Shown: positions 6,858 through 53,584 of the stretch, piece by piece
How the letters are laid out: each line of letters starts with the position of its first letter
Position numbering within the stretch: the stretch's first letter is position 1
NCBI GenBank assembly: GCA_963809665.1
Contig: CAWEKC010000005.1
Location: forward strand, 104,392-168,391
Direction of reading: 5' to 3'
Source: Candidatus Gottesmanbacteria bacterium
GTDB taxonomy: Bacteria; Patescibacteriota; Microgenomatia; UBA10105; UBA927
Length of the DNA: 64,000 bases
The notes under the pieces: generated by a model
The model's database searches: none
Told to the model about the DNA's origin: nothing
The model's input: only the letters and a program-made list of their open reading frames with translations
Translations under genes and position numbers: made by a program

Positions 6858-6859
6858 GA

Positions 6860-14771: not shown

Positions 14772-14773
14772 AG

Positions 14774-14894: not shown

Positions 14895-14921
14895 CCGATT
14901 TCTATTACTGCTACTATTAAT

Positions 14922-21299: not shown

Positions 21300-21906
21300 T
21301 GGTTAATTGTTTCGCCGCCAGGCCGATGCGGTTCAGAAGCCGGATGATCTGATCTCCTTTCGGCGCCAGGACGATAAGCGCCCGTTCAAAAATATAGGGT
21401 CTCGGGTACGGGAGGCCCCGTTTTTTTGACCCGCCCAAAAGTACGTTAGCGCTCACGCCCAGCTCCAGATATGAGAAGGGTACGACGATGTAAAATTTCT
21501 TATCCAGAACATCTTTTTCCTTAACGGTTGCTGCGACAAACAGGCGGTATCCGTGCATCGCTGCGGCAAGCTTCGGATTTTTCTGTATTTTTTCGCGGTC
21601 TTCCAGCGTCTGCAGATATGCCGTCACGTCTTTGTGTTGGGTGCGGATAAGAATTTCAATCGGAAACGACAGGGAGTTGAGGAGCCCCGCATACGCATAA
21701 ATAATGGCATCCTGTTCTTTTTCGGACAACAATCCGAAATTGACGGCGGTCGCCGATACGACCATGGAACACGAGCCGTCTGTATACATAACAATCCCGT
21801 GGTCGATAGTTTCTATTTCTGTGAATAGTTGTGTGGATGAGCGGATGGGCACGATTGAATCCGGCATACGATTACTGTGTTGTTGTCCCGAACAATTCTT
21901 TCTCAA
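21208..21906 (-). CDS. hypothetical protein in the T4SS-like cluster; its 5' end overlaps virB4 by ~90 nt
   Basis: 232-aa ORF with no recognised motif; the true start may be an internal Met. Confidence 0.4.
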   Translation of the reverse strand: MRKNCSGQQHSNRMPDSIVPIRSSTQLFTEIETIDHGIVMYTDGSCSMVVSATAVNFGLLSEKEQDAIIYAYAGLLNSLSFPIEILIRTQHKDVTAYLQTLEDREKIQKNPKLAAAMHGYRLFVAATVKEKDVLDKKFYIVVPFSYLELGVSANVLLGGSKKRGLPYPRPYIFERALIVLAPKGDQIIRLLNRIGLAAKQLTNEQLVRLFYEIYNQGAPIVNPTNIEKAVGT

Positions 21907-23122
21907 GTTTTGCTCGTGTTATTTCTTTTTCTGTTTTTGCAAAAATTTCAAGCGCGGGTACGATCGATCCGTTGAGCGTGATTTGCGCCCGATCAAAGGT
22001 AAAGCGCAGGCGCGGATCCTCTACTTCTACAAAATACGTGCCATTGGGAAGCTGGGTGGATGCCGCAAATTGCCCGAGACGGTTTGTTTTGAGGGCCCGC
22101 AGCGGCATACCCTCTTTGTCTTTCACCGTCACGAGGACACCGGGTAATAAATTTTTATCTTTATCCTTGACGATCCCCGTGACGATATTGGGGAACGTGG
22201 TAAGCCGCGGAAGACCCACTTTTGCCGCCCGTCCGGGACCAATGACTTGGATGGTGGGCATAGCGGGTGTGGAAGGCGTTTGCGTCGTAGTCGTCGTTGT
22301 GGGCTCAATTTTCGGGGCGCTGCTTTGCGCTCGCAGATGTGCCATTTCCGTCATCATTTTTTCCTGTTCGGCCAAGAGTTCGGTCAATTGCGTCTGCAGT
22401 TCCGCTACACGAGATTCCGCAGCGTTTTTACTTTCCAACTCCGCCGTGAGCTTTTTAAGTTTTTCTTCAAGGACCGATTCTTTGAGCTGGGTATCCGCAA
22501 GCTCCCGTGCGACGCTTGGGGCGGGTCTCACAATCGGGGGAGGCGAAAAATCCATCTGACGCGCCCGTATAGCCGCCTGCATGGCAACAGGAGGTGCCTT
22601 TTTGGGTTTGGGCGTCCAAAAGTCGGAAAGAATGTCAAACAGGCTTCGCTTGGGGGCAGCAACCGTAATGACCTCCTGGGACGTGGGAGGCGGTACGCTG
22701 AAGGAGGGAGCAGGAATAAAAATATTTTGCAGAATATCTCCGCGGCGCGTCTGGGGCTCGGCAGCCCGCGGCGGGACAACCACCGCCCTACCGGCCGGCA
22801 GGTTTGATTGAGGTTGTGGTTGAGCCGGAGGTGAAACCTGTTTTTTCCATACATACTGCGTCGGGTTATAAATACTCCTGATAAACGAAAGAACCCACAC
22901 GTCCATAGGACGCTCTTCAACCGGTACAAATGCCAGCCCGAATCCCAGAATCGCAGAAAATACTGCCAGCGGCACGGTAAAAATAAATGGCAGCGGTAGT
23001 TTGTATATGATGTAGGCGACGACTGCCCCGCCCACAAGATACCCGAATTGTTTCAAAGTCATATCGCCGATCAGGCGGAATTGAAACGTGGTGACATTTT
23101 GCGGTATCGGATGCTGTTCCAT
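21872..23122 (-). CDS. membrane protein with a VirB3/PrgI-like N-terminal TM hairpin, a central coiled coil, a Thr-rich linker and a C-terminal carboxypeptidase-regulatory-like beta-sandwich domain
   Basis: MTLKQFGYLVGGAVVAYIIYKLPLPFIFTVPLAVFSAILGFGLAFVPVEERPMDVWVLSFIRSIY forms the TM hairpin; coiled coil LKESVLEEKLKKLTAELESKNAAESRVAELQTQL; C-terminus GVLVTVKDKEGMPL...GQFAAS...NGTYFVEV. Confidence 0.45.
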   Translation of the reverse strand: MEQHPIPQNVTTFQFRLIGDMTLKQFGYLVGGAVVAYIIYKLPLPFIFTVPLAVFSAILGFGLAFVPVEERPMDVWVLSFIRSIYNPTQYVWKKQVSPPAQPQPQSNLPAGRAVVVPPRAAEPQTRRGDILQNIFIPAPSFSVPPPTSQEVITVAAPKRSLFDILSDFWTPKPKKAPPVAMQAAIRARQMDFSPPPIVRPAPSVARELADTQLKESVLEEKLKKLTAELESKNAAESRVAELQTQLTELLAEQEKMMTEMAHLRAQSSAPKIEPTTTTTTQTPSTPAMPTIQVIGPGRAAKVGLPRLTTFPNIVTGIVKDKDKNLLPGVLVTVKDKEGMPLRALKTNRLGQFAASTQLPNGTYFVEVEDPRLRFTFDRAQITLNGSIVPALEIFAKTEKEITRAKLEKELFGTTTQ

Positions 23123-29859: not shown

Positions 29860-30180
29860 TTAATAGCTGGGGATGGTAAATTGTGTGACATCTACGCCGG
29901 TAAATAAAGAAATCGTTTTCAGTATCAGGTAGGCAACAACGATAATAACGACGCCGGTGATAGCCGCCGTCAGCGTACCGCGCGCTTTCTCAAGTTTTTT
30001 CTGGTCTCCGCCGGATAACAGGAATCCGTAGCCCCCGACGATGAGCATCACAAATAAAGCAACGCCCACAAGCGCGGTGAGCGCCTGAACAACGCTGATA
30101 AATATCGGCTCAAAACATTTGAATGTTGCCACGTCCTGTGCATTTGGAAGTGTTGAGAAGCATCCTGACCAATCAGCCAT
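29860..30180 (-). CDS. TrbC/VirB2-like pilin family protein, copy 1 of a six-gene tandem array
   Basis: ~100 aa with two hydrophobic helices flanking the conserved motif LLSGGDQKKLEKARGTLTAAITGVVIIVVA. Confidence 0.55.
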   Translation of the reverse strand: MADWSGCFSTLPNAQDVATFKCFEPIFISVVQALTALVGVALFVMLIVGGYGFLLSGGDQKKLEKARGTLTAAITGVVIIVVAYLILKTISLFTGVDVTQFTIPSY

Positions 30181-30231
30181 GCAAACATTATCACGCAGAT
30201 TACGTTAGTAGGCAAGAGACAAGAGAGCGGT

Positions 30232-30561
30232 TTAGAACGGTGACGGTATTGAGATTGATCCGCCGATGATCTGTATGCCCAGGAAGTTCTGGACCAGAAT
30301 CATGACAGCCCATGCGGCGCCGACGATTATAAGTCCGACAATCGCGTGGGTAATTTTATTGCGGGCTGCTTCCATACCGGCTTTGTCGCCGCCGGACGTG
30401 ATCCACTGAATACCGCCCAGGATCAGGAAGAAGAACGCCATGAGTGCCGCAAGGATAAGGAGGAGACCGACGAGCGCACTGATGAGTTTCCCGATATCGC
30501 CGATTTTTACGTTCGTGGGTTGCGGGATAGTAATTTCTGCCTGTGCAAATACCTTTTCCAT
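30232..30561 (-). CDS. TrbC/VirB2-like pilin family protein, array copy 2
   Basis: ...ITSGGDKAGMEAARNKITHAIVGLIIVGAA. Confidence 0.55.
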   Translation of the reverse strand: MEKVFAQAEITIPQPTNVKIGDIGKLISALVGLLLILAALMAFFFLILGGIQWITSGGDKAGMEAARNKITHAIVGLIIVGAAWAVMILVQNFLGIQIIGGSISIPSPF

Positions 30562-30635
30562 AATTCCTCCTTATAACGATCGGTTTCTATTATATCCTTG
30601 CTCTCATTGTTGCGCAACCGTCTTCGGTTTGTCAA

Positions 30636-30992
30636 CTATTGATTAATGCCCGGAATGGTGAGGTGCGTGAGTTCAATACCGAAAAATCGTCCGACCAGCG
30701 TCATGATGGCGAACGCCGCCGCCACAATCACCAGCCCCATGATGGCGTTGGTGATACCATTCCGTGCCTTTTCAAGTGCCTGTTTATCTCCGCCCGCGGT
30801 AATCCATTGAAGGCCGCTGGTAATAAGAGTCATGAACGCGAGTAAGAACGCCGCGATAAACAGCGCACCGATCAGATTGCTGATAAGCAGTCCCAGCGCG
30901 TTGCCGCCCTGGCTTACATCAGGGTGTGAACCGCCCCCTAAAGCGGGAGGCAGGATGGGATTCCGGATTTGCGCAAGAAAATTTATTCTCAT
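30636..30992 (-). CDS. TrbC/VirB2-like pilin family protein, array copy 3
   Basis: ...ITAGGDKQALEKARNGITNAIMGLVIVAAA. Confidence 0.55.
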   Translation of the reverse strand: MRINFLAQIRNPILPPALGGGSHPDVSQGGNALGLLISNLIGALFIAAFLLAFMTLITSGLQWITAGGDKQALEKARNGITNAIMGLVIVAAAFAIMTLVGRFFGIELTHLTIPGINQ

Positions 30993-30995
30993 ACC

Positions 30996-31379
30996 TTATT
31001 TAATTTGTAATTGTTCTATGATTTTTGCGGGATCGCCGACAAGAATGTCATAGCCCAGGAACTGACCGACCGTCGCAATGATGATCCATGCGGCAACGAC
31101 GATAATGAGTCCGAAAAACCCGTTCATGATCCGCTGCCTGGCAGTTGTGAGCTTTTTTACGTCGCCCGCGCTGGAGATCCACTCATATCCGCCGAAGAGG
31201 AGCTGGAATAAAAACCAGATGCTGCCGGCGATCGTCATAAACCCGACGATTGCCGAAATAGCGTTGGTTACCTGGATAAGCGCTCCTGTGCCCGTTGTGG
31301 CGGGGTTTTTGCCGAATGGCCCCAATCCTTCACCCCCGATAGGGCCGAGCGGAACCTGTGTTTGTGCAAGAAGTGTCAT
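30996..31379 (-). CDS. TrbC/VirB2-like pilin family protein, array copy 4
   Basis: ...ISSAGDVKKLTTARQRIMNGFFGLIIVVAA. Confidence 0.5.
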   Translation of the reverse strand: MTLLAQTQVPLGPIGGEGLGPFGKNPATTGTGALIQVTNAISAIVGFMTIAGSIWFLFQLLFGGYEWISSAGDVKKLTTARQRIMNGFFGLIIVVAAWIIIATVGQFLGYDILVGDPAKIIEQLQIK

Positions 31380-31744
31380 GGGTTGGGTGCGTAAATCTTG
31401 GGATTTAAAATAAATCCTGCATCGCCGAATAATAAATATCCGAAGAGAGCGGCAAGAGCAAACGATCCGACGACAAGGATAAGTCCTATCAGCGACTGCC
31501 AGATTTTACTCATGGCTTTTTCAATCGCTTTGGAATCTCCGCCGGCACTCATAAATTGGAATCCCGCTAGGATAAGGTTAAAAAAGGCGAATAATCCCGC
31601 TACTACAAATACAAGCCGGAGAATATTAGTCAAAAACACTGTAAGACCACCGATGCCCCGATATGCTGGAGCAATCTGGTCGTTTGTGACCTTCCCGACA
31701 ATACTGGTTGCGTCCTGTGCGAATATTTTTTCTATACCGATCAT
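31376..31744 (-). CDS. TrbC/VirB2-like pilin family protein, array copy 5
   Basis: ...MSAGGDSKAIEKAMSKIWQSLIGLILVVGS. Confidence 0.5.
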   Translation of the reverse strand: MIGIEKIFAQDATSIVGKVTNDQIAPAYRGIGGLTVFLTNILRLVFVVAGLFAFFNLILAGFQFMSAGGDSKAIEKAMSKIWQSLIGLILVVGSFALAALFGYLLFGDAGFILNPKIYAPNP

Positions 31745-31749
31745 AATTA

Positions 31750-32133
31750 TTACAGTCCGACTATCTGCTTTAACATGGGCGAGCCCGTTATGGTGGCGAT
31801 CACCTGTACGATAAGTACAGACAGTACGACAATAAGAAGTCCTATGACCGCGCCGGTTATCGCATTTTTTCCCTGATTGGTTTGTTTTGCATCACCGCTC
31901 CCTGTTCCCATAATAACGCCGAATCCGCCTATAATCAATAAAACAAAGCTGATAATGCCGGCAAACACGACGGCATTTTTGACGATAAGGGTTACAATTT
32001 GACCAAAATCTGTAAATGTAGCCGCCGGAGCGAAAACGTTAGGGTCACCAATATTTACAGCCATGCATTTAGTGTACGGGAGTGTGATTCCACTGTCAAT
32101 TTGTGCTATAGTTATAGCCTGTGGACGACGCAA
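31750..32133 (-). CDS. TrbC/VirB2-like pilin family protein, array copy 6; probably starts at the internal Met (MAVNIGD, ~32064) rather than overlapping the sigma-factor start
   Basis: ...IMGTGSGDAKQTNQGKNAITGAVIGLLIVVLS. Confidence 0.5.
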   Translation of the reverse strand: MRRPQAITIAQIDSGITLPYTKCMAVNIGDPNVFAPAATFTDFGQIVTLIVKNAVVFAGIISFVLLIIGGFGVIMGTGSGDAKQTNQGKNAITGAVIGLLIVVLSVLIVQVIATITGSPMLKQIVGL

Positions 32134-32914: not shown

Positions 32915-33532
32915 ATGGAAACATCGCTTATTGTCGCGCTCGTTGAATTCAGCAGGAATATTATAGGACTTGTTACCCGTCCATATGAGACTTGCCGCAG
33001 GATTGCGGATCGCGGTGGATTTGGAGAACTTGTATATGTAGCGGTACTTCTTTCCGTATATTTCGCTTTTGCGTCACTCGTAAAAGTTGCTTCATTCCGG
33101 CCGTTTTTACTTTCCCGCCAGTTTATCGTTCTTTGTGCTGCGACGGGGGGAACATATCTTTTTGCCGTTGCGCTTTTTTGGACGGCGGGAAAGTTGGTTG
33201 GGGCCCACGGACGGTTGAAGGGCCTTGCCGTCCTGTGGGGATATTCGCTTCTGCCTACGCTTCTTTGGTTTTTCACTACGTCTCTCCTATATCTTCTGTT
33301 GCCTCCGCCACGCACAACAAGCGTCCAGGGCATTCTTTTCAGTGTGTTATTCCTCGTGTTTTCCACCACGTTGTTATTATGGAAAATGACGATTGCGTAT
33401 TTATCACTCCGGTTCGGGCTCAGGCTGGGTTTAGGAAAAATTCTGGTTATATTGGTGGTCTCACTCCCGATTCTGGGACTGTATAGCTATTGGCTGTATC
33501 ATTTAGGGATATTCAGAATTCCATTTTTATGA
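32915..33532 (+). CDS. polytopic membrane protein, possibly Yip1-family-like
   Basis: 205 aa with ~5 TM helices; an ATGA overlap with the next gene. Confidence 0.4.
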   Translation: METSLIVALVEFSRNIIGLVTRPYETCRRIADRGGFGELVYVAVLLSVYFAFASLVKVASFRPFLLSRQFIVLCAATGGTYLFAVALFWTAGKLVGAHGRLKGLAVLWGYSLLPTLLWFFTTSLLYLLLPPPRTTSVQGILFSVLFLVFSTTLLLWKMTIAYLSLRFGLRLGLGKILVILVVSLPILGLYSYWLYHLGIFRIPFL

Positions 33533-34650
33533 ATATGAGGGATTACAAAACCGTTTCGGAAAGACGCAAGGCTTTTGAGAAAAAGCTTACCATAGATTTG
33601 AAACATATAGGCGCCTTTACGCTGGATGAATCGGCTGCTTCGACACGGAATTGCGAAAACATGATCGGCGCGGCACAGATACCCATAGGTGTTGCCGGCC
33701 CGCTTCGTATTACACATAAGGATTATTACGTACCGCTTGCAACGACCGAGGGGGCGCTTGTGGCATCCGTCAACCGCGGATGCAAGGCTATTACAGCATC
33801 AGGAGGTGCAATGGTTGACAGCTACAGGGTGGGTGCTACCCGCGGACCGGTATTTAAAGTAAAAAATCTCAAAGAAAGTGGTGAACTGAATGCTTTTTTG
33901 GTGAAAAATTTTGCGGAGTTTCAGAAGATTGCCGCTCAAACGTCACATCATCTCACATTGAAAAAATATATGGATCGCGGGGTAGGGCGATATCGCTATG
34001 TGCGTTTTGTTTTTGACACCCAGGATGCCATGGGCATGAACATGGTGACCATTGCGACGCAAAAACTTGTTAAGTTCATTGAAACACAAACGACAGCGCG
34101 CTGTATTTCTTTAGCAGGTAATTATGATGTGGACAAAAAGCCCTCGTGGCTCAACGTTATTGAAGGGCGTGGTGTCAAGGCGTGGGCAGAGGTCACAATT
34201 CCGGAGAGAATTCTACGGGGCGTATTAAAAGCCACCGCACAGAAAATGTATGACGTGTGGCTTGCCAAATGCATGATAGGATCGGCGATGTCCGGCTCGA
34301 TGGCGTTTAATGCGCACTATGCAAACATTGTTGCAGCGCTGTTTTTAGCAACAGGCCAGGATATTGCACATGTTGTGGAAGGAAGTTTAGGGATAACAAC
34401 AGCGGAGGTTATACAAAAAGATCTGTATGTAAGTGTGTATCTGCCGGATCTCATGGTCGGCACCGTCGGCGGAGGAACAGGGCTGGCGACCCAGCGTGAA
34501 GCATTGAAACTTTTTGGCGCGCAGGATAGCAGAAATTTTGCTGAAGTTATAGCGGGCACGGTTTTGGCAGGAGAAGTATCACTGTTGGCATCATTGTCCG
34601 AAGGGACACTGGCAAAAGCGCACAAAACGTTAGCAAGGGGAGGGAACTAA
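33529..34650 (+). CDS. hmgA: 3-hydroxy-3-methylglutaryl-CoA reductase (short archaeal/bacterial class I type)
   Basis: ENMIGAAQIPIGVAGPLRI...TTEGALVASVNRGCKAI...DAMGMNMV...GTVGGGT; the start is set at the ATGA junction MNMRDYK. Confidence 0.85.
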   Translation: MNMRDYKTVSERRKAFEKKLTIDLKHIGAFTLDESAASTRNCENMIGAAQIPIGVAGPLRITHKDYYVPLATTEGALVASVNRGCKAITASGGAMVDSYRVGATRGPVFKVKNLKESGELNAFLVKNFAEFQKIAAQTSHHLTLKKYMDRGVGRYRYVRFVFDTQDAMGMNMVTIATQKLVKFIETQTTARCISLAGNYDVDKKPSWLNVIEGRGVKAWAEVTIPERILRGVLKATAQKMYDVWLAKCMIGSAMSGSMAFNAHYANIVAALFLATGQDIAHVVEGSLGITTAEVIQKDLYVSVYLPDLMVGTVGGGTGLATQREALKLFGAQDSRNFAEVIAGTVLAGEVSLLASLSEGTLAKAHKTLARGGN

Positions 34651-35726
34651 TGGTCGGGATCGTTTCATACGGTACATATATTCCGGAGTATCGGATTAAA
34701 CTTGCCGATATTGCCTCGGCGTGGAAAAAGGACCCCCGGGAAGTGGTGGGATCATTAGGGGTCGAAGAAAAATCAGTGCCTGGCACGGATGAAGATGCGG
34801 TTACTATCGCGCTACAAGCCGCATTCAATAGTCTGGCGGCGTTTCGGGGAAAGCCTGCGGACATAGAAGCATTGTTCGTAGGTTCGGAAAGTCATCCGTA
34901 TGCCGTGAACCCCACTTCAACAATTGTCGGAGAACTATTGGGAGTCGGACACAATTATTTGGCAGCGGATCTGGAATTTGCCTGTAAGGCGGCAACTGCC
35001 GGTATACAGGCGGTTGCGGGACTTATTGAGTCCGGACAGACGGGCTTTGGTTTGGTCATCGGGGCGGACACTGCCCAAAGCAAGCCGCATGACGCGCTGG
35101 AGTATACCTCGGCGGCAGCGGGAGCCGCGTATCTTATGTCTGGCGAAGCTAGATCTCGCTCCGCGAGATCCGAGAAACAACAGCTCATTGCCAAGCTTCT
35201 CGCATACACGTCCTATTCCTCGGATACACCTGACTTCTGGAGGCGTGACGGTATCCGGTATCCCTCCCACGCCGGTCGGTTTACCGGTGAACCGGCATAT
35301 TTTGCGCACGTTATAGGGGCGGCAACCCGATTACTTACCAAGACTCATACGAAACCGGAGGATTTTGATTATTGTGTATTCCATATGCCTAACGGTAAGT
35401 TTCCGCGTGATGTTGCCCGCAGGCTGGGTTTTAGTAAAGAACAATTGTCTGCGTCCCTGACGGTGGATCACATCGGCAATCCGTACGCCGCGTCTGCCAT
35501 GCTGGGGCTTGCCGCAGTACTGGACAGAGCAAAACCGGGAGAGAAGATATTCATGACGTCGTATGGGTCTGGTGCCGGTGCGGACGCTTTTGTCTGGGAA
35601 ACGACCCCGCTATTGTCGCGGGTGCAAAGGATCCGCGGCAAGCGGGGTGATTTAGTCACCCAACAGATAGTGAAAAAAAATTACATCAATTATGTTGAGT
35701 ATTTGAAGCAGACACACAAAATATGA
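34650..35726 (+). CDS. HMG-CoA synthase, archaeal type
   Basis: MVGIVSYGTYIPEYRIKLADIASAWKKDP...GSESHPYAVNPTSTIV...FACKAATAG is characteristic of archaeal HMGCS. Confidence 0.85.
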   Translation: MVGIVSYGTYIPEYRIKLADIASAWKKDPREVVGSLGVEEKSVPGTDEDAVTIALQAAFNSLAAFRGKPADIEALFVGSESHPYAVNPTSTIVGELLGVGHNYLAADLEFACKAATAGIQAVAGLIESGQTGFGLVIGADTAQSKPHDALEYTSAAAGAAYLMSGEARSRSARSEKQQLIAKLLAYTSYSSDTPDFWRRDGIRYPSHAGRFTGEPAYFAHVIGAATRLLTKTHTKPEDFDYCVFHMPNGKFPRDVARRLGFSKEQLSASLTVDHIGNPYAASAMLGLAAVLDRAKPGEKIFMTSYGSGAGADAFVWETTPLLSRVQRIRGKRGDLVTQQIVKKNYINYVEYLKQTHKI

Positions 35727-36863
35727 ACGTATTTATAACCGGGGCAGCAACAACAAAATTCGGGGAGTTGTGGGCAACGTCACCCCGCCGGCTGGCGGGT
35801 GAGGCTGTCGGCAACGCACTGAAAGATGCCGGCATTGGTATCCGGCGGGTTCATGCACTATTCGTCGGAAACATGTTATCCGGTATTCTTGCCGGACAGG
35901 AGCATTTAGGTGCGTTTTTCGCCGAAGAATTAGGCCTTACCGTTCCCGCTTTTAAAGTAGAAGGCGCATGTGCATCCGGAGGCCTTGCGCTACATAACGC
36001 GGTAAACAGCGTCCTGTCAGGCCAATATGATACCGTGGTTGTTCTTGGGGTGGAGAAAATGACGGACCATAAACCGGAAGATGTCGCCACAGCCCTCATG
36101 GGTGCGGGATCGGAAGAAGAACGGGTGGCAGGTGCAACCTTCCCGGGTTTATATGCAATTCTCGCACGTGCGCACATGATGGAATACGGGACGACCCGGG
36201 AGCAGCTTGCCGCGGTTGCCGTCAAAAATCATTATCATGCATCCTTAAACCCAAACGCGCAATTTCACACAACCATTACCATTGAACAGGTTGCACAGAA
36301 GCCCACGTATTGCCGACCCTTTACGGCTTCTGGATTGTTCGCCCATTTCAGACGGCGCATCAGCAGTTGTGGTAAGTAATAAGAAATCGTCACACGGTAT
36401 TACTATTGCAGCAAGCACTGTCGCGACGGATTCATTGGGACTTGCGAAGCGAGCATCTTTAACACAACTTGCTGCAACCAAGGAATCAGGAAAACGCGCA
36501 TACACTAAGGCTGCCATTTCACCTGAGGATGTTGATGTTGCGGAGGTCCATGATTGTTTTACGATTGCCGAAATACTTGCGATGGAAGATTTGGGTTTCT
36601 ATGCAAAAGGAAAAGCCACCGCCGCGATTATGGCCGGCGAAACGCAGTTGGGGAAATCCCACCATTTGGTTGTTAATCCATCCGGTGGGCTTAAAGGATG
36701 CGGGCATCCGGTAGGAGCCACAGGGATTAAACAAGTGGTGGAACTAGTGGAGCAGTTGCGGGGGAGGGCCGGAGTACGTCAAGTAAAACAAGCGAAGATT
36801 GGTTTAGCACATAATGTGGGAGGTTCAGGAGCAACCGCCGTTGTGCATATTTTAAAAAAATGA
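35723..36863 (+). pseudogene. acetoacetyl-CoA thiolase (archaeal-type thiolase partner of HMGCS) interrupted by a single-nucleotide frameshift near 36298-36300
   Basis: ORF 35723..36379 (..KVEGACASGGLALHNA..) and ORF 36282..36863 (..IADPLRLLDCSPISDGASAVVV..) are in frames +2 and +0; deleting one a from cagaagccc restores the contiguous thiolase sequence EQVAQSPRIADPLRLLDCSP. Confidence 0.7.
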
Positions 36864-37165
36864 ATACGCAGAGTCCGGTAAAAATTTGGAGAAACCAGAA
36901 ATATATCGCGGGCATGCTCGGGCGTGAGGGCACTATTGTTTCCTGGACGGTCGTCCGCGTGCCGCCCGGCGGGTTTTCGAGCCTTGCCCCGTATCCGGTT
37001 GTTGTTGTTGACATAGGAGGAGACGGAAGAATTATCGCTCAACTGGTTGACTGGACTGAAAATGATTTAGCTGCCGGGCGAAAAGTCCGGGTTGTGGTAC
37101 GGCGCATATCCGAGCCCACAACCGAGGGTGTTATCCCGTACGGGATTAAAGTGAAACCCGTTTAA
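36860..37165 (+). CDS. DUF35 OB-fold protein, the scaffold subunit of the archaeal thiolase/HMGCS complex
   Basis: 101-aa ORF with an ATGA overlap with the thiolase stop; ...EGTIVSWTVVRVPPGGF...PYPVVVVDIGGDGRIIAQLVD is a DUF35-type OB fold. Confidence 0.65.
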   Translation: MNTQSPVKIWRNQKYIAGMLGREGTIVSWTVVRVPPGGFSSLAPYPVVVVDIGGDGRIIAQLVDWTENDLAAGRKVRVVVRRISEPTTEGVIPYGIKVKPV

Positions 37166-37175
37166 TGGTTTATAT

Positions 37176-38087
37176 ATGAAAATTACAGTATCGGTTCCCG
37201 GAAAAATATATTTGATGGGCGAGCATGCGGTGGTGTACGGAAGACCGGCTCTGCTTTCTGCAATAAACCTCCGTTTATCCGTTTCCGTTGAGCCGGCAAA
37301 ATCTCTGAAAATTATCTCAACGGAGTCTTCCGATTATGTACGCCATGCCGCGGAGTTTGTATCGAAAGAATACGACCTGCAGAAACCGCTAAACGTCAAA
37401 ATTACCGTCACATCGGATATTCCTGCGGGGTATCATCTGGGCTCATCAGCCGCGGTAGCGGTCGCGGTGGTCGGCGCACTGACGTATTATCTGAAAAAAG
37501 TCTGGAATCCGCAGATCGCGAATCAATTAGCCTATGAAATCGAGAAAAAACAACACGGAAATCCGTCGGGCGCTGATAACACGATGGTCACCTCGGGAGG
37601 GTTTTTGTGGTATAGAAAAGAGCTTGAGTTTTTACGGAGTTTTTGGCAGTTACCCTTCAAAATGCCCTCCACGTTACACCATTTTTTTCTCATTGATACG
37701 GGACGGCCGAAAGAAAATACGGGGAAGATGGTTGCGCTGGTCCGTGCGGAATATCAAAAGCACGTATCGCGCTACAAAAAATTATTTGATAAAAATGAAG
37801 ATCAGACAAAACGGATTGCCGTTGCGTTAAAAGAAGGGGATGAAAAAGCATTGATTTCGTCCATGAGGTATGGACAGAGGACACTTGAAGAAATGGGAGT
37901 TGTGAGTAAAAAAATTACTCCCCTCATCAGAAAGATAGAACGGGCAGGAGGAGCGGCAAAAATTCTAGGTGGAGGAGGACGGACCGCGGGAGTAGGTTAT
38001 CTATTATGCTATTCCCACCCGCGGCCGGGCGGCGGCATACCGATTACGTTGGGAGAAGAAGGGATACGGTTGGAAAAAAATATATGA
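37176..38087 (+). CDS. mvk: mevalonate kinase (GHMP kinase family)
   Basis: VSVPGKIYLMGEHAVVYGRPAL and the GHMP motif PAGYHLGSSAAVAVAVVGAL. Confidence 0.7.
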   Translation: MKITVSVPGKIYLMGEHAVVYGRPALLSAINLRLSVSVEPAKSLKIISTESSDYVRHAAEFVSKEYDLQKPLNVKITVTSDIPAGYHLGSSAAVAVAVVGALTYYLKKVWNPQIANQLAYEIEKKQHGNPSGADNTMVTSGGFLWYRKELEFLRSFWQLPFKMPSTLHHFFLIDTGRPKENTGKMVALVRAEYQKHVSRYKKLFDKNEDQTKRIAVALKEGDEKALISSMRYGQRTLEEMGVVSKKITPLIRKIERAGGAAKILGGGGRTAGVGYLLCYSHPRPGGGIPITLGEEGIRLEKNI

Positions 38088-38995
38088 CAATCAGCGCACC
38101 CGGAAAACTCATGCTGTTTGGAGAACACGCCGTCGTGTACGGTCATCCGTGTATTACGACCGCAGTGGACATCCGGCTATCAGTTTCCATTGAGTCTACC
38201 GGTGACGGAAAAATCACGATCAATGCGCCGGAGGTGAAAGACACGCGTTTTGTCGATGCGGCGATTACACTTGCGACTAACGAGTGGCATATTCGGCACA
38301 ACGGATTCCGCCTTTCGACCAAAAGTCCGTTTTCCGGATGCTACGGATTTGGTTCATCTTCAGCCGTGACGGTAGCCACGCTGAAAGCTCTGGCCGGCCT
38401 GGGTAATACAGATATTGATGAGCGGAAACTATTTGATGCTGCCTACAATATAGTCCTGTCCATACAGGGTACCGGGTCGGGATTTGACGTGGCATCAGCG
38501 GTATACGGCGGGACGTTATATTTTTTAAAAGGCGGCAAGGTCATTGATCCGCTTGCGGTGGATGATATGCCGCTGGTTATCGGGTATACCAAAGTAAAAA
38601 GCAATACGGTGGATGTTGTCAAAATGGTGGCAGGTAAACAGGAAAAGTATCCGGAAAAAGTGAACAGGATCTTCTTAGGGATTGCCGAACTCGTGGATCA
38701 GGCGAAGGCAGAGATCCTTGCAGGAGACTGGGAGCGCGTCGGCAGGCTCATGGATTTTGACCAGGAGTATCTGCGCGATCTCGGGGTAAGTTCGGAAAAA
38801 TTAGAGGCACTGATTACCGCAGCCAAAAGCGCGGGGGCATGGGGAGCAAAGCTATCAGGTGCAGGGTGCGGGGACTGTATGATTGCCCTTGCCTCACCGG
38901 ATACGCGGGTAGCGGTAGAAGAGGCCATAACCGGCGCCGGCGGAGAGGTAGTGCGGGTTTCCCCGAATGCAGAAGGGGTAAGGATAGATCCATGA
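38084..38995 (+). CDS. second GHMP-family kinase, probably phosphomevalonate kinase
   Basis: ISAPGKLMLFGEHAVVYGHPCITTAV and GFGSSSAVTVATLKALAGL; ATGA-coupled on both sides. Confidence 0.55.
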   Translation: MTISAPGKLMLFGEHAVVYGHPCITTAVDIRLSVSIESTGDGKITINAPEVKDTRFVDAAITLATNEWHIRHNGFRLSTKSPFSGCYGFGSSSAVTVATLKALAGLGNTDIDERKLFDAAYNIVLSIQGTGSGFDVASAVYGGTLYFLKGGKVIDPLAVDDMPLVIGYTKVKSNTVDVVKMVAGKQEKYPEKVNRIFLGIAELVDQAKAEILAGDWERVGRLMDFDQEYLRDLGVSSEKLEALITAAKSAGAWGAKLSGAGCGDCMIALASPDTRVAVEEAITGAGGEVVRVSPNAEGVRIDP

Positions 38996-39912
38996 AAGCG
39001 ACGGCGAAAGCGCCCGCAAACATCGCATTCATTAAATATTGGGGCAAGAAAAATGCCCGGTTACACCTGCCGTACAATGCCTCCATTTCGATGAACTTAA
39101 GCAAATGTACGACAACAACAACCGTAGAGTTTTCAGAGGATTTCGGAGAAGATGTAGTTTCTACGGGTTTCAATAAGAAAAGAATCATTGCGCATATTGA
39201 CCGGTTGCGGACATTAGCAGGCAACCGGCAAAAAGTACGTGTAACGACAAAAAATTCCTTCCCGACATCTGCCGGTATTGCGTCATCTGCGTCCGGATTT
39301 GCAGCGCTAACGATGGCAGCGGCCTCGGCGTTAGGATTAAAACTTTCCGAAAAGGAATTAACTGGTCTTGCGCGCCTCGGGTCCGGGTCCGCCTGCAGGA
39401 GTATTCCTGACGGATTTGTGAAGTGGGAGGACTCTTTTGCGTATTCGTTATACCCGCCGGAGTATTGGGACATACGGGATATTCTTCTCATTGTCGACAA
39501 GTCACAAAAACACGTGGCTTCTGCCTTGGGGCACGAGGGCGCAACTACAAGCCCGTATTTCGGCATGAGACTGGAGAGGCTGCTCGGTAGGATTGCGCGC
39601 ATAGAAGAAGCATTACGGAGGAAAAATTTTCAGGTATTCGGTGAGGTAACCGAGGAGGATTGCTTAGATATGCACCATGTCATGCAGACGCAGCAACCTC
39701 CGCTTATGTATTGGAATGATGCGACGAGGAAGATTATGAGTGATGTTATTGCCTGGAGAAAACAAGGAATATCCGCATACTTTACGATCGACGCCGGACC
39801 GAATGTACACCTGATTTGTGAAGGAAAAGACGAGAAACGTATTACGGATAAAATTGGAACTACATATCAAATTATTGTAAATAAGCCGGCACGGGGAGCG
39901 CACATTATATGA
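38992..39912 (+). CDS. mvaD: diphosphomevalonate decarboxylase
   Basis: APANIAFIKYWGKKN, NSFPTSAGIASSASGFAALTMAAA and GSGSACRSI. Confidence 0.8.
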   Translation: MKATAKAPANIAFIKYWGKKNARLHLPYNASISMNLSKCTTTTTVEFSEDFGEDVVSTGFNKKRIIAHIDRLRTLAGNRQKVRVTTKNSFPTSAGIASSASGFAALTMAAASALGLKLSEKELTGLARLGSGSACRSIPDGFVKWEDSFAYSLYPPEYWDIRDILLIVDKSQKHVASALGHEGATTSPYFGMRLERLLGRIARIEEALRRKNFQVFGEVTEEDCLDMHHVMQTQQPPLMYWNDATRKIMSDVIAWRKQGISAYFTIDAGPNVHLICEGKDEKRITDKIGTTYQIIVNKPARGAHII

Positions 39913-40580
39913 TTCCAAAACATATTGCCATAATTATGGACGGAAACCGACGGTGGGCCCGGGTGCACAATCTGCCGGTCCTTGAGGGGCACCGGCGCGT
40001 TGCCAATGAGGTGCTGGAAAAATTAGTGGAACACGCAGCGGCGCGCGGCGTGAAGTATCTGACATTTTGGGCGTTTTCCACGGAAAATTGGCATCGTGCA
40101 CCGGACGAGGTGAAAGGAATTATAACGATACTAAAGCAAAGTATCGGATATTTCGGCAAGCGGATGCATAAGAAAGGAGTGCGGTTATTGGCTATCGGAG
40201 ATCTTTCAGGGTTTGACAGCCAATTGCAGCGTTCTATTACGTCCGTAGTAGCGTTAACCCAACACAACAAGAAAATTACCGTCATCATCGCATTGAATTA
40301 CGGCGGAAGGGATGAAATTATCCGTGCGGTTAAGAAAATTACACGCCCTGATATGGTTACGGAAGAGGAAGTCTCGCACCTATTGGACACCCGCGGTATA
40401 CCTGATCCGGAATTACTCATACGGACCGGCGGCGAACAGCGCCTGAGCGGTTTTTTACCGTGGCAGAGTGTGTACAGTGAGCTCTATTTTCCAGCGTGGT
40501 ATATGCCTGATTTTACACCTCTACGATTAGACGAGGCGATTGAAGAGTATGCGCACCGGCATCGAAGATTTGGGAAATAA
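39909..40580 (+). CDS. uppS: undecaprenyl-diphosphate synthase (cis-prenyltransferase)
   Basis: HIAIIMDGNRRWA...LTFWAFSTENWHR...RTGGEQRLSGFLPWQSVYSELYF. Confidence 0.9.
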   Translation: MIPKHIAIIMDGNRRWARVHNLPVLEGHRRVANEVLEKLVEHAAARGVKYLTFWAFSTENWHRAPDEVKGIITILKQSIGYFGKRMHKKGVRLLAIGDLSGFDSQLQRSITSVVALTQHNKKITVIIALNYGGRDEIIRAVKKITRPDMVTEEEVSHLLDTRGIPDPELLIRTGGEQRLSGFLPWQSVYSELYFPAWYMPDFTPLRLDEAIEEYAHRHRRFGK

Positions 40581-40583: not shown

Positions 40584-40934
40584 CTAAGGGACTCTGGGAA
40601 AGACACTGTTTATGGATTCAAGCCCGAAGATGGTGCCGACAAGCTGGACAATCCAGTATGCGGCAAACACGATGAAAAACCCCACGATTGCATTTGTGAG
40701 CTGCTGTTTTCCCTGTTGCATTTTTTTTGCATCACCCGCGCTGGTTAAAAACGTATAGCCGGCGGAAATCAGCATGAGGAGTAATCCCAGTCCTGCAAAC
40801 GCCATTACTAAAGGAACTGCAGTAGAGAGAATGGCGCCGATGGTCGGGTTGGGTCCAGCTCCAGGAATATTGAGTGGGCCTTTTAGAGTGTTGCCGCCCG
40901 GCAGAGTTAAATTTTGTGCCAATAGGTTGTGCAT
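40584..40934 (-). CDS. TrbC/VirB2-like pilin family protein (seventh paralog, outside the main array)
   Basis: ...LTSAGDAKKMQQGKQQLTNAIVGFFIVFAA has the same motif as the six-gene array. Confidence 0.5.
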   Translation of the reverse strand: MHNLLAQNLTLPGGNTLKGPLNIPGAGPNPTIGAILSTAVPLVMAFAGLGLLLMLISAGYTFLTSAGDAKKMQQGKQQLTNAIVGFFIVFAAYWIVQLVGTIFGLESINSVFPRVP

Positions 40935-40938
40935 ACTA

Positions 40939-42120
40939 TTATAAAAACCCAGGAATACCGAGGATAGTTACCCCGATAAGCCGCAATATAAATATTGAAA
41001 AGATTATAATGAGCAATCCCGTGATGGCGCTGGTGACCAGTTCTTTTCCGGCATTGAGTCTTTCCGGGTTTCCGCCGCTCATGAGTATCTGGAACCCACC
41101 GAAGAGAATGAGGAGAAACGCAATCCCGCCGCCGATACCCACCCCGATCCCGATAACTTGCCCAATGAAGGTGGCCGGATCAGTCGGGATGCATCCAAAA
41201 GCTGTCCACGCATGTAGCCCATCGGCCATGCACGCGTGACACGTATCAACGTTGGTTCCGGCAAATTCACAGACTTTGGTTGCTTGGTCAGAACTCGATT
41301 TTTTTACACAGCACCCGCTCGCCAGACATAGACCGATATCCCAGGCTTCATCCGGCAGTTTCTGATTGCAGTCTTGATTAGTCGTACAGACTCCTCTTCG
41401 ACCGTCACTTGTTTTGCAGGTTTGACCGAGGGTTGGCCTCTTTGTTTCCGGTGATCCAGGTCTGGCTGCGCAGCAGCCGGGTATTGCTGTAAGTTTATAC
41501 ACATCCATACATTGGTCAGGATCTGGATTAAAATTAATATTTGAATTATCTTTATTACACTCGGTAAAGAGTGAACATAACCCCGGCCAGCTTTCCGTCT
41601 TACTTATTATGAGCGTGCAGGTTTTTTGTCCTGTTGTGACGGGTTTTGTTGCGCAGCAGCCGCCTGCCTTACATGTTTTCCTGTCCCACACCCCATTATC
41701 CTGAAAGTCAATAACTAAGCAGTTAAACGTGTCTGTACAGATACCCGGCCATGTGTTTCCGGCGGTACATTTCTCACCAATGCCAGGCAACGCAGCATCG
41801 GGTGTTCCCGGTTTGATTCCGCAACAGCCGACGGGGTATCCCTTATCCGGATTCTCATCAGGCATGCATGTTGTGACTGCCGAATCCCATTTTCTATTGC
41901 CGCTTGATACGATACAATCCTGTTTTATTACACACTGTCCTGACCAGGCAGGGTCGTTGATGGTGGTACAAGGATCCCCAACGTGTTCATATTTTTGACC
42001 TGGTCCATACGGATCGGCTGCATGTGCTTTTGTCGCGAGCATTCCAAAAATTCCGGTGGCTAAAATGAAGAATAAGGAGGTCAGAATAACCTTTTTAAGC
42101 ATACGATATAAGTGTATCAA
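40939..42120 (-). CDS. secreted Cys-rich protein (~33 Cys) with a C-terminal TrbC/VirB2-like pilin domain; putative pilus-associated adhesin or minor pilin
   Basis: Signal peptide MIHLYRMLKKVILTSLFFILATGIFGMLATKAHA; recurring motifs such as GCCxxKP/GCCA; C-terminus GGFQILMSGGNPERLNAGKELVTSAITGLLIIIFS matches the pilin motif. Confidence 0.5.
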   Translation of the reverse strand: MIHLYRMLKKVILTSLFFILATGIFGMLATKAHAADPYGPGQKYEHVGDPCTTINDPAWSGQCVIKQDCIVSSGNRKWDSAVTTCMPDENPDKGYPVGCCGIKPGTPDAALPGIGEKCTAGNTWPGICTDTFNCLVIDFQDNGVWDRKTCKAGGCCATKPVTTGQKTCTLIISKTESWPGLCSLFTECNKDNSNINFNPDPDQCMDVYKLTAIPGCCAARPGSPETKRPTLGQTCKTSDGRRGVCTTNQDCNQKLPDEAWDIGLCLASGCCVKKSSSDQATKVCEFAGTNVDTCHACMADGLHAWTAFGCIPTDPATFIGQVIGIGVGIGGGIAFLLILFGGFQILMSGGNPERLNAGKELVTSAITGLLIIIFSIFILRLIGVTILGIPGFL

Positions 42121-47029: not shown

Positions 47030-47032
47030 TGG

Positions 47033-47416
47033 GGACGTACAAGATTCGACAGTCCGAAGTTCTTTAACATTGCAGGCCGACTTTGACTTTAGAGTCGTTA
47101 AACACAGAGTCAAAAACTAAATGCTGAAGCTGAACAAGCAGAAGCTGCCTTCTACGCACGAAATTTTGCATTCGCAAGATTGAACGCGTAACGGCCATCT
47201 CTCGAATGTTTCTTCAGTGACGTTCCTGAGGTGTAAACAAAGCTGAGGTGCAGCTATACGGGTTCGACGTTCCTGTATAGTGAAGTCAATACGTCTTAAT
47301 CCCGCCATTCACTTGTCAATCAGCGAGGGCGGGATGACAATTAAAGATTGACTACGCCTGTAGATATGTTTCGGGACATCGCTCTGGACGAGAGCTCACT
47401 ACTCTCCGTCTCCACC
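47033..47416 (+). ncRNA. ssrA: tmRNA (SsrA), standard one-piece form
   Basis: The 5' end GGGGACG..GATTCGACAG; the 3' end GGAC-GAGAG-CTCACTA-CTCTC-CGTCTCC-A-CC closes a 7-bp acceptor stem with the 5' end; an internal ORF ...GCT GAA GCT GAA CAA GCA GAA GCT GCC TTC TAC GCA CGA AAT TTT GCA TTC GCA AGA TTG AAC GCG TAA is a candidate tag; it lies directly downstream of smpB. Confidence 0.7.
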
Positions 47417-47438
47417 CTTCGCTCCTCCTGTATGATAG

Positions 47439-48769: not shown

Positions 48770-48858
48770 GGAGGGTTGGCTGAGTGGTCCAAAGCGAAGG
48801 TTCGCTAAACCTTTGAGCCGTAAGGCTCGCACAGGTTCGAATCCTGTACCCTCCGCCA
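48770..48858 (+). tRNA. tRNA-Ser (anticodon GCT)
   Basis: Acceptor GGAGGGT/ACCCTCC, anticodon loop TCGCTAA, long variable arm, T-loop GGTTCGAATCC, CCA encoded. Confidence 0.85.
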
Positions 48859-48859
48859 G

Positions 48860-48946
48860 GGAGAGGTCGCATAGTGGTTTAGTGCGTTAGTCTTGAAAAC
48901 TAATGTCGGCGCAAGCTGACCGTGGGTTCGAATCCCACCCTCTCCG
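48860..48946 (+). tRNA. tRNA-Ser (anticodon TGA)
   Basis: Acceptor GGAGAGG/CCTCTCC, anticodon loop CTTGAAA, long variable arm, T-loop GGTTCGAATCC. Confidence 0.85.
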
Positions 48947-49005
48947 CACACGAATTTATCTTCATTCAACCACCAGGGAAGCTTAATAATTGATATAATG
49001 AGATC

Positions 49006-50082
49006 GTGGCCGAACTAATTGATAATCCCAACAGCGCAGGAACAAGTAATCAGCCTGTTGCTGATGTACCGGTTTCAAATCCGGATATTGTGCCGCCGTT
49101 TTATCAAATTCCTAAAAGAAAAATTTCTCCACTTCTATTACTTGTCGGTATTCTTATCGTGGTTGGTGTAGTAATAGGTGCCTCTGTGCAGATATATTAT
49201 AAAAATGCGTATAAAACAATTGTTAACCCATATGATAGTACAAAACTGACAAATACGAATCCAACTGTTGGTATGGGGTCTTTATCAACCATACAGATCA
49301 GCTCTACACCGATGACAATAATCAGTCCGACGAGCACACCGAAAATCTATCCTACAAATACACCAACGAATACGCCCACCCGCACTCCGACACCCACCCC
49401 AAAGCCCACACCGACACCCACAAGAACACCACGCCCGCCGATTATAAATATTTCTTTTCCCTCAGAGATGCAGGTAATCAATATGACGGGAAATCAGCAA
49501 CTCTGTATAGTAGATACTCCGAGCGGCGGTGATACGTCGGGAGTAATGAGACGTCATAATATTAACGACGGAGGATGGAGCGGGTACACCCAGGTGTTTA
49601 CTCTTTGTTTGACGCCGAATGAGGGTACGAACCGGATTCAACTCCAATATAAAAATTCATACGGAGATGAATCGGTTCAGTATACGAGGCAGTTTGTATT
49701 TCACCGGATATCTCCGATGACTATTACGTACAGCGGGCAGCTGTTTTTGGATGCAAACTGTAACGGAAGTTTTGACAGCGGTTCAGAACATTATCTAAGT
49801 TTGTCAACACCAATTACCATTATGCAACTTCCAGGAGCCCAAATACTTGCTACACCGACAACAAGTTCGACCGGAAACTGGAGTTATTCCAAGGAGATCA
49901 TGGATAATGAATCCATCACTCTTCAGGCTACCGTAAATACCTCCATACCGGTGCCGTATGTGTTGCATCCAGATTCCGATAAAAGAATATTCAATCGGAC
50001 GTTCGATCCAAATAACAGGAACTTTTCCATTCTGCAGCCGATTGTCACTACGACAATATTTACAACCGTTTGTCCCCACTAA
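49006..50082 (+). CDS. membrane-anchored surface protein with a Thr/Pro-rich PTNTPT repeat region
   Basis: TM anchor LLLLVGILIVVGVVIGASV; ...PTNTPTNTPTRTPTPTPKPTPTPTRTPRPP. Confidence 0.5.
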   Translation: MAELIDNPNSAGTSNQPVADVPVSNPDIVPPFYQIPKRKISPLLLLVGILIVVGVVIGASVQIYYKNAYKTIVNPYDSTKLTNTNPTVGMGSLSTIQISSTPMTIISPTSTPKIYPTNTPTNTPTRTPTPTPKPTPTPTRTPRPPIINISFPSEMQVINMTGNQQLCIVDTPSGGDTSGVMRRHNINDGGWSGYTQVFTLCLTPNEGTNRIQLQYKNSYGDESVQYTRQFVFHRISPMTITYSGQLFLDANCNGSFDSGSEHYLSLSTPITIMQLPGAQILATPTTSSTGNWSYSKEIMDNESITLQATVNTSIPVPYVLHPDSDKRIFNRTFDPNNRNFSILQPIVTTTIFTTVCPH

Positions 50083-50654
50083 CTGATCTGCGTCTTTCTA
50101 CTCTTTGGATTCCCTCGTTTTTGATATATACTGAATTCATGGCTGACACTGCCGATACACAGGAAGAAGTTAAACAGGAAGTGTTCCTGGCCTGGGTTTC
50201 CCCGTCACGGCTTTTTAAACGCCGAGATAAAGAATATTTTACCAACATTGGGGCAATCGTCTTTCTCCTTATTATCATTTTGGTTTTTGCCAGGGAGTTT
50301 TTACTCATTGCAGCGGTCGTCTCCATTGTATTTCTTGTCTATGTACTTTCTACGGTACCTCCCGAGGAGGTATCTCACAGAATAACGAACCTCGGCATTG
50401 AAAGCGCCGGGCATTATTACCGGTGGGAAGAACTCTCGGAGTTCTGGTTTGAAGAACAGTGGGGTCAGGGCACCCTGGTTTTGCAGCCGGCGCTGGGGAC
50501 GCGCATTATTATTCTTTTAGGTGCCCAGGATAAGACCCTTGTCCGTAAACTTATTGCCCAGTATATCCCGTTCCGGGAAAATCCTGAGAAAAGCTGGGTA
50601 GATAATGCCTCGTCGTGGTTATCAAAGAAAATTCCCCTGGATAAGCCTTCATAG
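50070..50654 (+). CDS. hypothetical membrane protein
   Basis: 194-aa ORF with two TM helices in its centre. Confidence 0.45.
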   Translation: MSPLTDLRLSTLWIPSFLIYTEFMADTADTQEEVKQEVFLAWVSPSRLFKRRDKEYFTNIGAIVFLLIIILVFAREFLLIAAVVSIVFLVYVLSTVPPEEVSHRITNLGIESAGHYYRWEELSEFWFEEQWGQGTLVLQPALGTRIIILLGAQDKTLVRKLIAQYIPFRENPEKSWVDNASSWLSKKIPLDKPS

Positions 50655-50682
50655 CCGTTTTGCGGTATAATAAAGCCCACTG

Positions 50683-50754
50683 GCTCCTGTAGTTTAACGG
50701 ATAGAATAGGGGTTTGCGGAACCTCTGATCGCAGTTCGATTCTGCGCGGGAGCG
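50683..50754 (+). tRNA. tRNA-Arg-like with an unusual anticodon GCG (loop TTGCGGA)
   Basis: Acceptor GCTCCTG/CGGGAGC (one U-G pair), D-arm with GG, anticodon stem GGGGT/ACCTC, T-arm CGCAG-TTCGATT-CTGCG, discriminator G; overall similar to the tRNA-Arg(CCG) at 53398. Confidence 0.5.
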
Positions 50755-50760
50755 CTAGCT

Positions 50761-50846
50761 GGAGGATTAGCCAAGTGGTTTACGGCGACGGTCTCGAAAA
50801 CCGTTCTCCCGCAAGGGAGGCACAGGTTCGAATCCTGTATCCTCCG
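50761..50846 (+). tRNA. tRNA-Ser (anticodon CGA)
   Basis: Acceptor GGAGGAT/ATCCTCC, anticodon arm ACGGT-CTCGAAA-ACCGT, long variable arm, T-arm ACAGG-TTCGAAT-CCTGT. Confidence 0.85.
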
Positions 50847-50849
50847 CTT

Positions 50850-51263
50850 ATGATTATTACCATCTGCGGAAGCATGCAGTTTCACCGGGAAATGACTCAG
50901 ACACAGCTTCTCTTGGAGGATCAGGGGCATACAGTGCTGGTGCCCAAAGATCTGACTGTTCTTGAGCGGAATGAGTCATATATGGAAACGGATGTCGAGC
51001 GCATTACTTCCAAAATTGAACACGATTTTATCCGTGAGCATTTTAAAAAGATTGAGAAATCCGACGCGGTAGTAATTCTCAATTACGAAAAAAAGAATAC
51101 TGCCGGGTATGTCGGCGGAAATACGTTTTTGGAGATGGGGTACGCATTCGGACTCGGGAAGAAAATATATCTTTTATATCCGGTGCCGGAGATGGATTAC
51201 AGCGTTGAAATGCATGCTATGAAACCAATAGTTCTTCACGGCGATCTCTCTGCACTACAGTAA
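50850..51263 (+). CDS. small cytoplasmic protein, possibly nucleoside 2-deoxyribosyltransferase-like
   Basis: MIITICGSMQF...SDAVVILNY...GGNTFLEMGYAFGLGKKIYLL; the start is set at the internal Met because the track's upstream start overlaps tRNA-Ser(CGA). Confidence 0.45.
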   Translation: MIITICGSMQFHREMTQTQLLLEDQGHTVLVPKDLTVLERNESYMETDVERITSKIEHDFIREHFKKIEKSDAVVILNYEKKNTAGYVGGNTFLEMGYAFGLGKKIYLLYPVPEMDYSVEMHAMKPIVLHGDLSALQ

Positions 51264-51575
51264 CACGTCTTCCCCGTTTCTCTTCTTTGAATCAATTAGC
51301 GACCGGATAATTTTACCCGTTTTGTCCATAATAACCAGCGACCCGCCGTTTTGACCTTTCAGCTTGGCATTAAACAATTGTTCAGGTCCGGAAATGCCGT
51401 CATATGCCGTTGTCGTATAGAGGTACGAACAGCATTCCCGGTACAGCGTATTGCCCACCATGCCGCTTTCCGGTGTTTCTAATCTTCCTATTGCCGGAGT
51501 GAGGGAAATACCAGAGTATGTTTTCAGGGTGTTGAGTATTGTTACGCCGGGATCTGCAACAACGCCTACCGGCAC
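51255..51575 (-). pseudogene. fragment of a class B penicillin-binding protein (end of the dimerisation domain into the start of the transpeptidase domain), truncated by a stop
   Basis: GISGPEQLFNAKLKGQNGGSLVIMDKTGKII matches the PBP G.sG.E..y...L.G..G ... vvmDp.tG.ILA block; the SxxK/SxN/KTG transpeptidase motifs are missing and the next gene follows immediately. Confidence 0.45.
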
Positions 51576-51627
51576 GGCCCGGTCCGGCTGGCTGTTGACC
51601 GCATAGCGGTGATAAAAGCCTACAGCG

Positions 51628-53335: not shown

Positions 53336-53397
53336 ACCCGCGCCATTGTATCAAAGTTTCATTTTTAGTGGGGAAACGGCTATAATTGCCGGGGTTA

Positions 53398-53469: not shown

Positions 53470-53490
53470 CACGCTATAATCATATATATT

Positions 53491-53577: not shown

Positions 53578-53584
53578 CCCGAAT

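Follow-up and report, generated by a model that had tools for sequence, protein, structure and literature searches.

A one-base frameshift in the acetoacetyl-CoA thiolase gene of a Candidatus Gottesmanbacteria mevalonate operon, probably a technical insertion in the deposited contig

The window, by which we mean the whole stretch of DNA that was analysed (64 kb), has its best protein matches in Candidatus Gottesmanbacteria, within the Microgenomates of the candidate phyla radiation (CPR). On its plus strand, an operon block at 32915-40580 carries the genes of a mevalonate pathway, among them a thiolase gene that is broken by one extra base. The features of the block are as follows.

32915-33532, plus strand: Yip1-domain membrane protein, first gene of the conserved block, syntenic in four related loci (L001, L002, L004, L086)
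33529-34650, plus strand: HMG-CoA reductase (HMGR), intact, 373 aa (PF00368, 2.5e-119)
34650-35726, plus strand: HMG-CoA synthase (HMGS) of the archaeal/CPR type, intact, 358 aa
35723-36292, plus strand: residues 1-190 of the thiolase (N-terminal part, original frame), including the catalytic Cys83 of ACASG (Thiolase_N, 8.8e-29)
36293-36300, plus strand: stretch holding the one extra base (GCACAGAA), best placed at 36294-36296 from a six-sequence alignment and an invariant Ser
36296-36379, plus strand: out-of-frame tail of the first ORF (QKPTYCRPFTASGLFAHFRRRISSCGK, then stop), without thiolase homology
36300-36863, plus strand: C-terminal part of the thiolase in the +1 frame, residues 193-379, with DCSPISDG, HDCF, GHPVGATG and NVGGSG (Thiolase_C_1, 6.1e-44)
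36860-37165, plus strand: DUF35/OB-fold protein, intact, third member of the thiolase/HMGS/DUF35 set (PF01796)
37176-38087, plus strand: GHMP kinase in the mevalonate kinase position, intact, 303 aa
38084-38995, plus strand: second GHMP kinase, in the phosphomevalonate kinase position, intact
38992-39912, plus strand: diphosphomevalonate-decarboxylase-like protein, intact
39909-40580, plus strand: cis-prenyltransferase of the undecaprenyl-diphosphate-synthase type, intact (PF01255, 2e-69)

Most junctions in the block are 4-nt ATGA overlaps. The thiolase ATG overlaps the HMGS stop in this way, and the thiolase stop, which lies in the C-terminal frame, overlaps the DUF35 start, so that the C-terminal thiolase frame is the one coupled to DUF35. 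The HMGR and HMGS genes overlap by 1 nt, and an 11-nt gap separates the DUF35 gene from the first kinase. All seven pathway genes flanking the thiolase are intact; together with the 1- and 4-nt start/stop overlaps, this bears out the description of the operon as otherwise intact and tightly coupled in the first-pass annotation, made from the letters of the DNA. Synteny of the operon is conserved in eight related loci (L001-L008). A mevalonate cluster with an archaeal-type acetoacetyl-CoA thiolase (AACT) has already been described for Microgenomates/CPR (Hoshino and Gaucher, 2018; PMC6107057). It has the same components as the block described here, namely AACT, HMGS, a class-I-like HMGR, GHMP kinases, a decarboxylase and an adjoining cis-prenyltransferase, and the sole difference is the frameshift in the window copy.

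The surroundings of the operon hold several other recognizable genes. A tandem array of six small paralogous genes, whose counterparts in related loci are annotated as T4SS pilin, occupies 29860-32133 on the minus strand, and two pilin-like genes follow the operon on the same strand (40584-42120, with 40939-42120 matching T4SS_pilin). L001, L002 and L086 have the pilin array in the same place beside the mevalonate operon. A TraG/VirB4-like ATPase, a PrgI-domain protein and an M23 peptidase are encoded at 19251-23122, minus strand. The neighbourhood of the replication origin (6402-16028) contains a jag/khpB-like gene, yidC, dnaA (13350-14771) and dnaN (14922-16028). At 47031-47417 and 48770-53580, the window also carries a tmRNA gene and six tRNA genes, which mark its source as a bacterium; the tRNA genes form three pairs that are specific for Ser (four anticodons) and Arg (two) only. 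A class-II tRNA gene at 60217-60480 (plus strand) has its anticodon loop interrupted by a group I intron with its core at 60236-60434 (RF00028, 65 bits). ARAGORN in intron mode calls this tRNA Asp(gtc). The rules for splice sites, by which a U precedes the 5' splice site and the intron ends in G, would instead give a CU-UAA-CA loop like that of a tRNA-Leu(UAA). The ORF upstream of it (59511-60197, 228 aa) has no Pfam match.

The split of the thiolase gene is evident from translation. Frame A, 35723-36379, encodes 218 aa and ends in ...TITIEQVAQKPTYCRPFTASGLFAHFRRRISSCGK*, and the +1 frame reads ...RSPRIADPLRLLDCSPISDGASAVVV... as far as the stop at 36863. In Pfam, the first ORF matches Thiolase_N and the second Thiolase_C_1; translation and domain halves thus agree with the first-pass annotation, which had taken the two ORFs in adjacent frames for one gene with a one-base frameshift. 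Indeed, (36282-35723) mod 3 = 1, which leaves one surplus base in the gene. In place of a single uninterrupted thiolase ORF, the deposited sequence has a 218-aa piece and a piece of 164 or 193 aa. The N-terminal part is 86-89% identical to its orthologues, whereas the out-of-frame tail of 27 residues has no thiolase homology, P0243 matching the repaired protein over residues 1-200 only, and the coding score stops 22 codons ahead of the stop of the first ORF. Deletion of one base within 36293-36300 yields a protein of 379 aa, the modal length of the family, whichever base is taken out. The catalytic motifs of the repaired protein are C83 in ACASG (82-86), HDCF (276-279) and GHPVGATG (327-334).

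None of the relatives shares the split. The best 120 homologues are all continuous proteins of 365-419 aa, exactly 379 aa in 59 cases, and the repaired thiolase is up to 90% identical to Gottesmanbacteria proteins at 100% coverage. One continuous thiolase gene is likewise present in the syntenic loci L001-L005 and in Gottesmanbacteria/Patescibacteria representatives (L006-L008). A split at the same site was found in 0/120 homologues and in none of the loci fetched. Orthologous loci had been proposed as a check in the first-pass annotation, with split orthologues named as the result that would speak for a two-subunit enzyme; the thiolase is unsplit in every one fetched. Against the archaeal acetoacetyl-CoA thiolase of Methanothermococcus thermolithotrophicus (6ESQ/6ET9), residues 3-378 of the repaired protein align with residues 4-389 (E = 2.6e-93), end to end and uninterrupted across the break, and the two share the ACASG Cys, HDxF and GH motifs. 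HDxF has been named an ACAT motif (PMC12960953). The location of the window gene between the HMGS and DUF35 genes corresponds to the composition of the archaeal thiolase/HMG-CoA synthase/DUF35 complex, described for M. thermolithotrophicus by Voegeli et al. (2018, PNAS), according to the part of PMC12960953 that cites that work. The window thiolase differs from the 6ESQ/6ET9 enzyme in that it is bacterial (CPR) and, in the deposit, broken by one extra base. With both domains, similarity over its full length, the motifs and the HMGS and DUF35 neighbours, all as found in AACTs of the archaeal/CPR type, the gene is predicted to encode the usual acetoacetyl-CoA thiolase of archaeal type, a single chain, that belongs to the mevalonate operon of Microgenomates.

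The position of the extra base can be narrowed to a few nucleotides. The deposited letters of the region, inside 36285-36310 and with the extra base, are GCACAGAAGC. Around the break, the window reads GTT GCA CAG AAG CCC ACG T ATT where the orthologues read GTT GTC AGR AGY TCN CGG ATT. AGC at 36300-36302 encodes a Ser that is invariant (120/120 homologues), and the extra base must therefore lie somewhere within 36293-36300. A blastn alignment with L001 covers 1147 bp of the thiolase gene with exactly one gap, so the split is not a chance pattern, and a DNA alignment with five orthologous loci puts a lone one-base gap at 36295, GCAC against GT-C. The column preceding the invariant Ser is K/R in 111/120 homologues and Q in 2/120. 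On these alignments the most parsimonious repair would be EQVARSPRIADPL, with the base removed from GCAC. The first-pass annotation had instead removed one A from CAGAAG, at about 36297-36300. That repair is also possible, giving EQVAQSPRIADPL, and it was right in that a contiguous 379-aa protein results; a placement at about 36294-36296, in GCAC, fits better. The accompanying suggestion of an indel in a short A run is less well supported, since the gap at GCAC and the prevalence of K/R in the preceding column do not clearly place the site in such a run, and two A's hardly amount to one.

Apart from the break, the thiolase gene shows no decay. No further stop or indel was found in the repaired thiolase. 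Conservation reaches 95% or more in 208 columns, and it differs at 2 of these, once in either half, where intact homologues average 0.85 and 0.9; it also keeps 94 of the 95 conserved C-terminal columns. Downstream of the break, dN/dS is 0.08-0.105, as compared with 0.076-0.09 for pairs of orthologues. By these measures the repaired thiolase appears to be free of decay, with neither the further lesions nor the relaxed constraint of a decaying pseudogene, although, with dS at about 1, a very recent break would give the same result as one that is not real.

The thiolase is not alone in being broken. We count six frame breaks in the 64-kb window, in four genes, and each is a +1 shift caused by one extra base. 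Five of them lie outside the thiolase in three conserved genes, four being confirmed by homology and one resting on coding potential alone:

5167-6386, minus strand: O-antigen-ligase-like (Wzy_C) gene in three ORFs with two +1 shifts; homologues are 400-440 aa
51255-53335, minus strand: GT39/MecA_N/PBP_dimer gene in three ORFs with two +1 shifts, at about 52867-52873 and 51642-51648
908-3452, minus strand: DUF4012 membrane protein with a probable sixth +1 shift at about 2745-2790, from coding potential only

In the Wzy_C gene, one shift lies within 6165-6205 (candidate A7 run 6185-6191) and the other in the T5 run 5724-5728, to which the closest homologue, reading KKIFYITT, pins the break. The fused product has 405 aa, and homologues align with residues 1-403 in one stretch. 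For the GT39/MecA_N/PBP_dimer gene, homologues of about 690 aa match the fused product at 100% coverage, tblastn divides the match into three HSPs, each free of gaps and in a frame of its own, and only in the fused product is the whole PBP_dimer profile (3-178) matched. This protein is unusual in having a PBP dimerisation domain without a transpeptidase, an arrangement that is conserved in Gottesmanbacteria and Patescibacteria. A truncated PBP pseudogene was considered and rejected, as the architecture of about 690 aa without a transpeptidase domain is the norm among relatives. In the DUF4012 gene, the coding signal changes frame just past the transmembrane helix, and the upstream frame is open for 129 codons with a negative score.

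A scan of ORF tails and heads across the window, blind to direction, returned no -1 candidate; it was more useful than a codon-score scan of ORF pairs, in which frameshifts could not be told from ordinary overlaps between neighbouring genes. Were +1 and -1 shifts equally likely, six breaks would share one direction with a chance of about 0.03, and under uniform placement six breaks would fall in just four genes with P of about 0.04. Three of these four are envelope genes. No stops, larger indels or deletions were found in any of the four broken genes, and the housekeeping genes dnaA, dnaN, yidC, dnaG, rpoD and L25 are intact, as are several ORFs of 600-1244 aa. Runs of at least 6 nt occur 84 times in intact genes, and the breaks are not concentrated in long homopolymers, so any error mode here would not be the classic homopolymer one. 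Nor did the six break sites show a shared motif: an A before C is possible at several, without significance, and one site is a plain T-run.

The same split is present in the public deposit, since one NCBI/ENA contig of 191,671 bp has gene calls for exactly the 218-aa fragment and for a C-terminal one of 164 aa (from a GTG at 36369). A second assembly of the species was not found, the nearest DNA being about 80% identical. Two metagenome DNA scans, one with a pattern spanning the site in either length and one with a species-specific 29-mer 80 nt downstream, were negative, and a short-query protein search across the break gave nothing above 84% identity except the fragment itself. The nearest species representatives among the matches listed are 71-76% identical. 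Of the window proteins looked up by exact match, Yip1 alone has a second contig on record, a 1.8-kb Logan contig from ERR12037368 with an identical gene. On other long contigs, thiolase fragments do occur, and they break at different residues. In L087 (positions 1-8489 of the 996-kb ENA contig ERZ1286166 contig_442), the block of sigma factor, Yip1 and mevalonate genes contains about ten frameshifts in both directions. L087 is evidently an error-rich long-read assembly of a related genome, and its users should be cautious; its operon, shredded by frameshifts, shows that this class of artefact exists for the clade. As in the window, the breaks in contig_442 are single-base ones in otherwise conserved genes, several per locus, at positions that are not shared between assemblies. 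The density in the window is much lower (about six per 64 kb), and the window has insertions only whereas contig_442 has shifts in both directions.

How, then, did the extra base arise? The first-pass annotation had left open whether it is a sequencing indel or a genuine inactivating mutation, and with orthologues unsplit and the operon intact and coupled, both of these readings survive. We favour an erroneous insertion, made in consensus calling or assembly, in the 191.7-kb contig that was deposited, with a probability of roughly 60%. Several isolated single-base breaks lie in conserved genes of the same contig, as expected of indel error. As the thiolase break is one of six +1 insertions in 64 kb, an assembly error is the most likely cause; the balance is tilted to this side by the five +1 breaks in three genes besides the thiolase. 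The unsplit orthologues, the lack of a second lesion, the intact and coupled pathway genes and the artefacts in other contigs of the clade speak for it as well. Under this explanation, the living cell would make an intact 379-aa thiolase, which with the adjacent HMG-CoA synthase and DUF35 protein would feed the intact downstream pathway. Three observations pull the other way. The breaks are clustered in four genes, three of them envelope genes, a pattern that would also fit real pseudogenes; they are not concentrated in long homopolymers; and the comparator L087 has breaks running both ways where the window has only +1, which counts against a technical error.

The main competitor, which we consider possible but rather unlikely, is a genuine and very recent one-base insertion, either fixed or dominant in the population or a minority allele. 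It would truncate the thiolase after residue 191 or so and inactivate the first step of the mevalonate pathway, and the cell would then need another thiolase or precursors derived from a host. The presence of the split in the public deposit is compatible with it, as is the lack of a tie to long homopolymers, and the other broken genes of the window, with two hits each in two envelope genes, look as if dead genes were accumulating lesions. Moreover, the literature describes CPR bacteria as reduced episymbionts that commonly lose genes. A real insertion is harder to reconcile with the lack of decay downstream of the break, with seven partner genes that are all intact and translationally coupled, and with four broken genes that contain no stops, larger indels or deletions; loss of the thiolase is also seen in none of the best 120 homologues or the fetched loci. 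Among real indels in bacteria, deletions predominate, as Mira, Ochman and Moran in 2001 and Kuo and Ochman in 2009 reportedly described, whereas all six breaks are insertions.

Recoding is far less probable than either. A programmed or tolerated +1 ribosomal frameshift would restore the full-length thiolase, and the shared +1 direction of all six breaks is what brings it to mind. In E. coli, ribosomal protein L9 restrains forward slippage. L9 is missing from the Microgenomates (PMC7304191), which lends this idea some further appeal. The site is absent from every orthologue, however, and other assemblies are broken at different residues. The codons GCA CAG AAG allow no re-pairing, there is no in-frame stop or slippery codon before the invariant Ser, and the six sites have no common motif. 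The sole slippery candidate, CCC_A at 36302-36305, comes only after the Ser codon and was rejected, as a slip there would put Lys on the invariant Ser, a residue seen in 0/120 homologues. Programmed frameshifting of the prfB type has the same +1 direction, but the window site is unconserved and lacks an in-frame stop or a hungry codon next to a P-site codon able to re-pair, and only a 3-nt AGG lies upstream of it. Still more remote is the extended version in which none of the six +1 breaks is an artefact and full-length protein is made from these genes all the same, the L9-less lineage tolerating insertions through elevated +1 slippage; if that were true, frameshifts by insertion, and not by deletion, would persist in conserved genes. 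Lastly, a thiolase that functions as two polypeptides, an N half and a C half, could be argued from the position of the break near mid-protein (about residue 191 of 379) and from the GTG at 36369, 8 nt ahead of the first-ORF stop, but it is effectively refuted by the comparison, as no orthologue is split, the first piece bears a 27-aa nonsense tail, a piece starting from GTG 36369 would miss the invariant RIADPLRLLDCSPISDG segment, and no start with a ribosome-binding site lies ahead of that segment. Unsplit orthologues and a break site that is not conserved thus rule out a two-subunit thiolase as well as a programmed frameshift.

Taken at face value, the deposit makes it seem that a Gottesmanbacteria genome no longer has the enzyme for the first step of the one isoprenoid pathway visible in it. 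Metabolic reconstructions made from the deposit would score the mevalonate pathway as incomplete. The main value of the finding is one of caution about data quality, with about one insertion that breaks a frame in every 10 kb of the contig. The thiolase is not singled out by its break, which is probably not biological. Should the frameshift be real after all, it would be an ordinary, very recent pseudogene of modest interest for the host dependence of CPR bacteria. Under either reading the finding is an ordinary one. On the evidence, the thiolase gene belongs to the mevalonate operon already known from CPR bacteria, as one of its normal genes.
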